Positions 3,274 to 4,315 of a stretch of DNA of 32,000 bases are shown here, piece by piece. The DNA lies in assembly GCA_963665155.2 (NCBI GenBank), contig CAXXFI010000001.1, forward strand, positions 760,558-792,557, read 5' to 3'. The notes beneath the pieces were generated by a model, which made no database searches, was not told the DNA's origin, and saw nothing but the letters and a program-made list of their open reading frames with translations. The stretch comes from Dehalococcoidia bacterium. Lineage in GTDB: Bacteria > Chloroflexota > Dehalococcoidia > Lucifugimonadales > UBA3495. Within the stretch, counting starts at the first letter, position 1. Every line of letters begins with the position of its first letter. The translations under genes and the position numbers were made by a program.

Positions 3274-4104
3274 CTATACCTCTAGGGGCGTATCTTCCCG
3301 GTTGGCCCACTCGCCCATGGAGCCATCGAAGTTCTTGGTATTGGCATAGCCTACTAATTGCATGACGAACACACTGTTCGCCGCTCGAATGCCGCCCTGT
3401 CAATACGTGTAAACGTTCTTGTCGGCGGTGATTCCGTTCTCGTTCAAAATGCGGCGAATCTCGCTGGCCGACTTGAATTGATGTGTGTCGCGGTCCATCA
3501 GGTTGAACCATTCCAAGTGCACCGCGCCGGGAACGTGGCCCGCACGCTGATTGCCCCGGTTGGCGCTGCCGTCCCACTCGCCGTCGCTGCGAACGTCCCA
3601 GACAACAGAGTTGTCCAGGCTACACGCAGCCTTCAAGTCGTCGGCGGACACGAACAACGTATCGTCCCTCTTTGCCGTGAATTTAACCCCTGAGGGAGCT
3701 TGAGGCCGATCGAAACTGACCGCGCGGCCCTCGCTCAACCATCGCCGCCAGCCTCCGTTCAGCACCTTCACGTTGGAATGACCGTAGGTGTTTAGCGCCC
3801 ACCACAGCCGGGCAGCGGTAAGGCTCTGGGAATTGTCGTAGGTTATGACCAGAGAGTCGTCGCCTATACCCAATCCCTGGCACATAGCCGTGAACTGCTC
3901 GGCGTTCATCAGATGCACCCGACCCGTGTCTGGGTTTTTCTCGAAATTGTCCGGCACCAGGGCGGCGCCGGGAATGTGGCCCCGGTTGTAACCGGCTTCA
4001 ACGTCGCAGTCGATAATCACCAAGTTGGCGTCGTCTTTATGGGCCTCAACCCAAGCGGCGTCCACCAGATACTCCGGGTGGGCATACTCCTCTGAAGTAG
4101 TCAT
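3274..4104 (-). CDS. Two-domain rhodanese (thiosulfate/3-mercaptopyruvate sulfurtransferase type) with in-frame TGA (3402-3400) at the catalytic Cys position; candidate selenoprotein, otherwise a nonsense pseudogene
   Basis: Likely start is ATG 4104 (RBS gggagg); a TTG at 4116 is also in frame. Motifs: IIDCD...YNRGHIPGA, WDVRS..EW.......RAGHVPGAVHLEW, then VYTY-TGA-QGGIRAANSVFVMQLVGYANTKNFDGSMGEWANREDTPLEV-TAG(3276-3274). The frame is intact across the TGA and the full length is about 277 aa, normal for this family. Confidence 0.8.
3360..3392 (-). promoter_or_regulatory. Candidate bacterial SECIS-like hairpin downstream of the rhodanese TGA
   Basis: mRNA GCAU-UCGAGC-GGCGAAC-AGUGU-GUUCGUC-AUGC. 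It has a 4-bp lower stem, a 6-nt 5' bulge, a 7-bp upper stem (one G-U) and the apical loop AGUGU, 25-29 nt after the UGA. Confidence 0.4.
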
Positions 4105-4315
4105 AGTGCCTCCCAAACATTTATTGTTAAAAAAATTAGGACTAAAAATTAGGCTTCGAAAAGCCAGGCAAGCTTAGGCGCTGCAAGGTCGGATTTGCCA
4201 GGCGCCGCAAAGCCAGACCAATTGTAGGCTCCGCCGGTGGCGCGGTCAATCGTAGCTATAGAAGCGATTTGCCCATGCCTGGAAGTGGGGTTAGAATGAG
4301 GCGAAATTGGCAATC

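Follow-up and report, generated by a model that had tools for sequence, protein, structure and literature searches.

The 32,000-nucleotide stretch of Dehalococcoidia DNA analysed here, called the window throughout, carries on its minus strand a tandem-rhodanese gene that is interrupted by an in-frame TGA (3402-3400), after which the same frame remains open for 41 more codons until a TAG at 3276-3274. From the comparisons set out below, we consider it very probable that the gene is intact and specifies a two-domain rhodanese of 276 residues, the catalytic residue of which, at position 235, is selenocysteine (Sec) encoded by UGA. The UGA stands in the column of the catalytic Cys and is conserved throughout the clade, the 41 codons beyond it are under purifying selection, and a hairpin located within them is under selection at the RNA level.

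The stop, the terminator and the intervening peptide, QGGIRAANSVFVMQLVGYANTKNFDGSMGEWANREDTPLEV, were already given in an initial annotation of the window, and on re-reading the DNA all three are exact. The open reading frame (ORF) listed for this locus, 3400..4116 on the minus strand, yields 238 aa from a TTG, but the likely start is the ATG at 4104-4102 and not the TTG, because homologues begin MT..YAHPE at that point. Public gene callers output a 234-aa product for the gene, and the identical 234-residue truncated protein is present on further contigs. Translation from ATG 4104 through the TGA gives 276 aa, of which the recoded residue is number 235; the annotation had estimated about 277-281 aa. 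Pfam PF00581 matches this read-through protein in two stretches (E = 2.3e-34), corresponding to two rhodanese domains, and the protein has what defines the tandem-rhodanese superfamily (COG2897): PF00581 twice, and a nucleophile that opens a six-residue loop of the C-terminal domain.

The proposal that the TGA replaces the catalytic Cys was examined against both structures and sequence clusters. In a search of all Protein Data Bank (PDB) sequences with the read-through protein carrying X at 235, this X fell on the catalytic Cys (..vvYCRi[ag]ER..) of 1UAR, 3HZU and the sulfurtransferase 8K55, with the Thermus rhodanese 1UAR aligning over residues 7-274 (E = 2e-43). The 234-residue N-terminal part was also used as an HMMER query in an exhaustive search of cluster representatives (50%-identity clusters, 1.84 billion in all), and the best 150 were taken: 95 are full length with Cys in the catalytic column, 29 end there, and 22 are fragments. 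Only 4 of the 99 full-length representatives among these have another residue in the column, and it is never Trp. The loop of one Cys representative, TYCQGGIRAA, is identical to TY[U]QGGIRAA of the window but for the Cys. The claim of the annotation is thus upheld by the three structures and by the 95 Cys representatives, and the locus shows the Sec/Cys pair by which selenoproteins are recognised, an in-frame UGA aligned with the Cys of homologues. As for the representatives that end at the TGA, the named NCBI members that were looked up are SAR202 or Chloroflexota proteins from metagenome-assembled genomes (MAGs), and others come from Tara Oceans samples.

The distribution of the TGA was followed in a scan of one genome per species (GTDB), of which the best 80 loci have protein matches spanning residues 1-276; the genomes concerned are without exception Dehalococcoidia, SAR202 or unclassified Chloroflexota MAGs. 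With the window gene and five tandem paralogues, these 80 orthologues give a set of 86 genes from independent assemblies of 80 species. In the codon alignment the catalytic column is TGA in 86/86 genes, never a Cys codon, TAA or TAG, and a second internal stop occurs in none of the 86 sequences, the window included. The presence of TGA in the same column of other genomes, which the annotation had named as a check, is therefore what was found, and neither TGT nor TGC occurs there among the 80 best loci. After the TGA, the 85 locus genes share the tail Q[GA]G[IL]RAA...GY...KNYD[GA]SMGEWAN..DTPLEV and end in TAG (36), TAA (34) or TGA (15); what is conserved in the orthologues is hence not only the UGA but also the frame on both sides of it. 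Among the 120 best homologues in a database of 5.8 billion proteins, all but two are cut off exactly at this residue: these 118 have lengths of 231-237 residues and the ending ..Y[TSA]Y. The five tandem paralogues (L041:~9000-9860, L047, L052, L069 and L078), each lying directly 5' of the main gene and 50-54% identical to it, have their own in-frame TGA followed by QAGLRAAH.., with a longer and variable C-terminus. Two more distant subfamilies at ~45% identity, L082:3001-3840 (on a 3.5-Mb contig) and L084:1204-2040, likewise have TGA at the catalytic column, followed at the DNA level by QGGIRAAH or QAGIRAAH. Because all 80 best species-level loci carry it, some of them in tandem, and further subfamilies do so as well, the Sec form may be the standard version of this rhodanese throughout SAR202/Dehalococcoidia and not an occasional variant, a generalisation that we offer tentatively and hold with slightly less than even confidence.

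The 41 codons downstream of the TGA do not evolve as debris. In the 86-gene alignment the ratio of nonsynonymous to synonymous differences (pN/pS) is 0.22 in these codons as against 0.31 in the 234 upstream codons, so that purifying selection is stronger on the tail than on what precedes it. With pS at about 0.55-0.6, synonymous differences approach saturation, and a tail that keeps a pN/pS of 0.22 in spite of this excludes a pseudogene; the pseudogene-like decay that the annotation had listed as a possible outcome came out negative.

The region just after the UGA is further constrained at synonymous sites, with a normalised synonymous-codon entropy of 0.38 over codons +1 to +13 compared with 0.69 upstream and 0.76 further downstream (Mann-Whitney p = 1.4e-5). 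In the window this region folds into a hairpin with an 8-bp stem and a 3-nt loop, GUG, at a spacing of 25 nt from the UGA; the energy of the hairpin is -8.1 kcal/mol. The four published constraints for a bacterial selenocysteine insertion sequence (SECIS), as quoted in PMC13188914 Fig. 2, are a 3-9 nt loop on a 4-16 bp stem, a G in the first two loop positions, a spacing of 16-37 nt and an energy <= -7.5 kcal/mol, and the hairpin agrees with every one of them, as only 4.4% of the UGA triplets in the window do. In the clade of the window (21 sequences, ..AANS..) the hairpin, GGCGAACA-GUN-UGUUCGUC, occupies nt 21-39 counted from the U of UGA and is 99% paired; the codons AGT, TTC and GTC are each found in 21/21 sequences, Arg+5 uses five different codons, and synonymous entropy is 0.023 over the hairpin versus 0.62 in the rest of the gene (p = 5e-5). 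In the sister clade (61 sequences, ..AAHG..) the hairpin is CCGUGC-GGC-GCACGG at nt 15-29, plus an outer helix, and its inner stem is 100% paired; there Arg+5 is CGT in 61/61, codons +11 and +12 vary, and entropy is 0.11 over the hairpin versus 0.68 in the rest of the gene (p = 2e-4; 56 main-gene orthologues only). The sister-clade hairpin thus lies 6-8 nt nearer the UGA, with its loop at nt 21-23 versus 29-31 in the clade of the window. Since the frozen block moves with the hairpin from one clade to the other, it is hard to explain except by selection on RNA structure. The rhodanese family may offer a natural experiment in SECIS placement, with two clades that each have their own frozen synonymous block. 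The conserved downstream hairpin for which the annotation had suggested looking is present, at 3382-3364, and lies within the limits for bacterial SECIS elements. The RNA evidence rests on these frozen synonymous sites, not on compensatory changes, of which the sole one seen in the inner stem is G-C to U-A at 3 loci.

The immediate context of the UGA is also uniform. In 81/81 orthologues TAT is the Tyr codon directly 5' of it (window 3403-3405, minus strand), whereas TAC prevails in other Tyr columns of the gene (56/63, 65/73 and 67/78, for example). The C after the UGA is invariant, and the local context, always U-UGA-C, may be a requirement of recoding.

Several points weigh against selenocysteine at position 235. 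The SECIS constraints are permissive: when the whole window was scanned, 39 of its 881 UGA triplets (4.4%) passed them. Formal covariation is weak because coding constraint leaves few double changes, and shuffle controls were not clearly exceeded for two candidate hairpins over the whole alignment. Neither the window nor its 9-kb flank nor the ~1.5 Mb of DNA from related loci yielded selA, selB, selC or selD. For selA, selB and selD this refers to tblastn matches with E. coli queries; for tRNA-Sec, ARAGORN reported none in the window or the 80 loci, which cover only a few kb of each genome, and the window has no Rfam match at gathering thresholds. The Sec machinery of this genome is therefore something that we infer from a paper on a related one. 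Nor does gene neighbourhood in the 80 loci supply a clue to the substrate, since the only frequent neighbour is an acetyl-CoA-synthetase-like gene.

Two candidates were considered and set aside in the course of these searches. A 96-nt 'tRNA-Gln (ctg)' called by ARAGORN (L019:14869-14964) has a tRNA-Sec-like length, with the wrong anticodon and no Rfam match at E up to 1, and is probably a false positive. A peroxiredoxin (AhpC/TSA) ORF at 14752-15255 on the plus strand follows an in-frame TGA that has 26 open codons upstream and is not a Sec site because the whole Pfam domain sits downstream of the TGA. A scan for TGA/Cys and TGA/TGA pairs over the window and the 1.5 Mb of loci left only real stops or 5' leaders and no other selenoprotein gene, in an output that was swamped by conserved off-frame stops and after an overlap filter strict enough to drop most true rhodanese matches.

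The competing explanation that survives best, improbable as we judge it, is that the UGA is read through without selenium, either by a near-cognate Trp or Cys tRNA or by lineage-wide reassignment of UGA, and that a standard amino acid stands at 235. UGA followed by C is a weak termination context in E. coli, and that is the context found here; the Sec machinery was not seen directly, and comparative data alone cannot identify the inserted residue. However, TGA ends 8 of the 22 Pfam-supported ORFs of the window and 15 of the 85 locus genes of the rhodanese family, and UGA is therefore not reassigned. A Trp tRNA sits poorly with a column that has Cys in 95/99 full-length representatives and Trp in none, and leaky read-through would have no role for an RNA-selected hairpin at the SECIS position. 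Moreover, the Sec pathway and numerous selenoproteins are reported for the closest reference genome, Dehalococcoidia bacterium UBA1141 (L001; 91% aa identity, syntenic): with 49 selenoprotein genes it is among the ten bacteria with the most in BSepDB, where a species is entered only if it has two or more of SelA, SelB and SelD (PMC13326102).

It is far less likely still that the gene is split, with a 41-residue peptide, translated from a start of its own, joining the 234-residue fragment to form an enzyme that has neither catalytic Cys nor Sec. An in-frame ATG does occur 13 codons past the TGA in the tail of the window gene, but the sister clade, to which the majority of orthologues belong, mostly has Leu in place of this Met, no ribosome-binding site precedes the ATG, the QGGIRAA between TGA and ATG is strongly constrained, and the product would be without its essential nucleophile. 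Equally remote, and in our judgement already refuted by the comparative data, is a pseudogene or assembly error in which a Cys codon, TGT or TGC, was mutated or misread to TGA and left a dead 234-residue fragment: the change is one base step and gene callers do output the 234-aa product, but a chance nonsense hit, which the annotation had allowed for, would have to account for the same TGA in all 86 genes, which represent 80 species assembled independently and are close to saturation at synonymous sites, for 118 of 120 best homologues ending there, for the identical truncated protein on other contigs, and for downstream codons that have no second in-frame stop and are more constrained than those upstream.

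For the Sec-containing rhodanese that we favour, we infer SelB/SECIS-dependent insertion, selenium content, substrates and Se-S chemistry along the following lines. The hairpin, 17 nt 3' of the UGA (3382-3364), would recruit the elongation factor SelB carrying Sec-tRNA(Sec), the UGA would be decoded as Sec and not as stop, and the ribosome would proceed to the TAG at 3276-3274. Catalysis would resemble that of Cys-type rhodaneses, with an active-site selenolate in the cradle loop U-Q-G-G-I-R accepting sulfane sulfur from thiosulfate, a persulfide or another donor; an enzyme Se-S intermediate would form with release of sulfite, and the sulfur would then be handed to an acceptor. Judged by its homologues, the enzyme should transfer sulfane sulfur through a bound Se-S and not an S-S intermediate, and selenium in place of sulfur would improve the residue both as a nucleophile and as a leaving group.

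Among proteins of known structure, the closest in kind are the Cys-type tandem rhodaneses 1UAR (Thermus thermophilus), 3HZU, 3HWI and 3AAX (M. tuberculosis SseA/CysA), 1E0C (Azotobacter vinelandii RhdA) and 1URH (E. coli SseA), which align at full length over residues 7-274 (E 2e-43 to 4e-28) and share the two rhodanese domains, the catalytic column and a ..Y/FDGS..EW.. tail. They differ in having a Cys codon where the window has UGA, and the loop of 1UAR and 3HZU is CRI[GA]ER versus U-Q-G-G-I-R here. Characteristic loops of this superfamily are CG[ST]GVT in mercaptopyruvate sulfurtransferases, CQTHHR in RhdA and CRKGVT in the classical thiosulfate type, and UQGGIR matches none of them. The best NCBIfam model, the SseA equivalog NF008557, gives 124.7 bits against a cut-off of 250, and by this measure the window protein falls outside the SseA equivalog. 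The protein stays below the cut-off of every NCBIfam model, a possible reason why the gene is not rescued by annotation pipelines; hundreds of orthologues are deposited as a 232-234-residue 'sulfurtransferase' that lacks the catalytic residue (HIN06229.1 and MCI0860081.1, for example).

The family as such is already known, having been catalogued since 2005 as a prediction. 'Rhodanese-related sulfurtransferase' (COG2897) was one of 15 new selenoprotein families from the Sargasso Sea, with 3 sequences and a SECIS figure (Zhang, Fomenko and Gladyshev, PMC1088965 Table 1), and the GOS survey lists 8 sequences as cd01449 and 1 as COG2897 (PMC2398784 Table 2). It recurs in a 2022 review (PMC9312934) and in a 2026 review as 'form 4', motif UxxG (PMC13188914), so that the mention in the annotation of rhodanese-related proteins among predicted metagenomic selenoproteins is accurate for all four of these sources. 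The window gene appears to be a further member of this COG2897/SseA-type selenoprotein family, the published representatives of which (AACY01016424, MQG53192.1 and MCY3690685.1) were matched by description only. Both are two-domain rhodaneses with UGA for the catalytic Cys, a U-x-x-G motif (here U-Q-G-G) and a small hairpin after the UGA with a G in its apical loop, and both come from marine, uncultured sources; no essential difference was found. A related cluster member bears the Tara Oceans label 'COG2897 K01011'. Other Sec rhodanese-like proteins, namely the single-domain COG0607, LYCAU/CxU NF041203 and the rhodanese/DsbD fusion TsoB (PMC13188914), share the rhodanese fold and carry Sec within or adjoining the active-site loop but differ in being single-domain or fusion proteins with the motifs UxxS, CxU and UxxxxU. 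With NF041203 the window protein reaches only 38 bits, where the cut-off is 115, and the match is on the N-terminal domain, not at the Sec site. With regard to the RNA element, the hairpin is, like E. coli fdhF-type and consensus bacterial SECIS elements, a coding-sequence stem-loop just 3' of the UGA with values within the limits; unlike them, it does not resemble the E. coli elements in sequence, and in the rhodanese family it is found at two offsets.

The known picture of bacterial selenoproteins is unchanged by these results. What is new is the breadth of the Sec form across SAR202 (80 species-level genomes and at least two further subfamilies versus 3 to 9 published sequences), the clade-specific shift of the SECIS hairpin, and the extent to which the protein has been deposited in truncated form. 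SAR202 sulfur-cycling papers on rhodanese genes and transcripts make no mention of selenium (PMC5864207, PMC9416657), and the rhodaneses counted there would be selenoenzymes if those genes include this family. If the Sec form is standard, the rhodanese step in reconstructions of SAR202 sulfur cycling belongs to a selenium-dependent enzyme that databases show truncated, and thiosulfate and sulfite turnover in the dark ocean would be tied to the supply of selenium. A biochemical study of a Sec-containing rhodanese was not found in the literature searched, and to demonstrate an Se-S intermediate in catalysis would be new chemistry.

Table 1. Mapped parts of the candidate selenocysteine-containing rhodanese gene (window positions).
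Feature	Position	Strand	Basis
Shine-Dalgarno-like GGGAGG, 4 nt 5' of ATG	4109..4114	-	sequence read directly
Codons 1-234 (Met1-Tyr234): N-terminal rhodanese domain and most of the catalytic C-terminal one	3403..4104	-	PF00581, homologue starts
In-frame UGA, probable Sec codon, residue 235, loop U-Q-G-G-I-R	3400..3402	-	alignment with catalytic Cys, TGA in 86/86 genes
Codons 236-276: remaining active-site loop and C-terminal ..GSMGEWAN..DTPLEV motif	3277..3399	-	no stop in 86 genes, pN/pS
SECIS-like hairpin GGCGAACA-GUG-UGUUCGUC	3364..3382	-	folding, 99% pairing in clade, frozen synonymous sites, four SECIS constraints
True terminator TAG	3274..3276	-	sequence; family terminators mixed

As to the surroundings of the gene, the acetyl-CoA-synthetase-like neighbour (AMP-binding, divergent) is near the rhodanese in 46 of the 80 loci, a DUF1330 gene follows downstream in 23, and in the window a PNPOx-like gene lies beside it at 2723-3202. 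The segment 6430-12900 looks like a variable island: it encodes a Uma2-family endonuclease, a UvrD-like helicase and a TgpA_N/DUF58/MoxR cluster, and whereas L001 has only part of it, L002, though syntenic elsewhere, lacks it. Its helicase has a short UvrD_C match only and overlaps the next gene. The annotation had spoken of other pseudogenes in the window, which is not what public gene calls show where we looked: the TgpA_N, DUF58 and MoxR genes are intact. Further along are a Pst-like ABC transporter (binding protein, two permeases and ATPase; 21034-24983) and, on the minus strand, HemD (uroporphyrinogen-III synthase) with a sulfite/nitrite reductase (25802-28656). The window corresponds to roughly 718.6-750.6 kb of ENA ERZ28669045 contig_12 (1,137,091 bp), and some 9 kb before the first position of the window this contig has an IS-type transposase (rve, HTH_Tnp_1; L086:1-402), followed by a large DctP-domain protein. 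The window also has two luciferase-like monooxygenases, at 17256-18251 and 19631-20671, a family of which expansions have been reported for SAR202.

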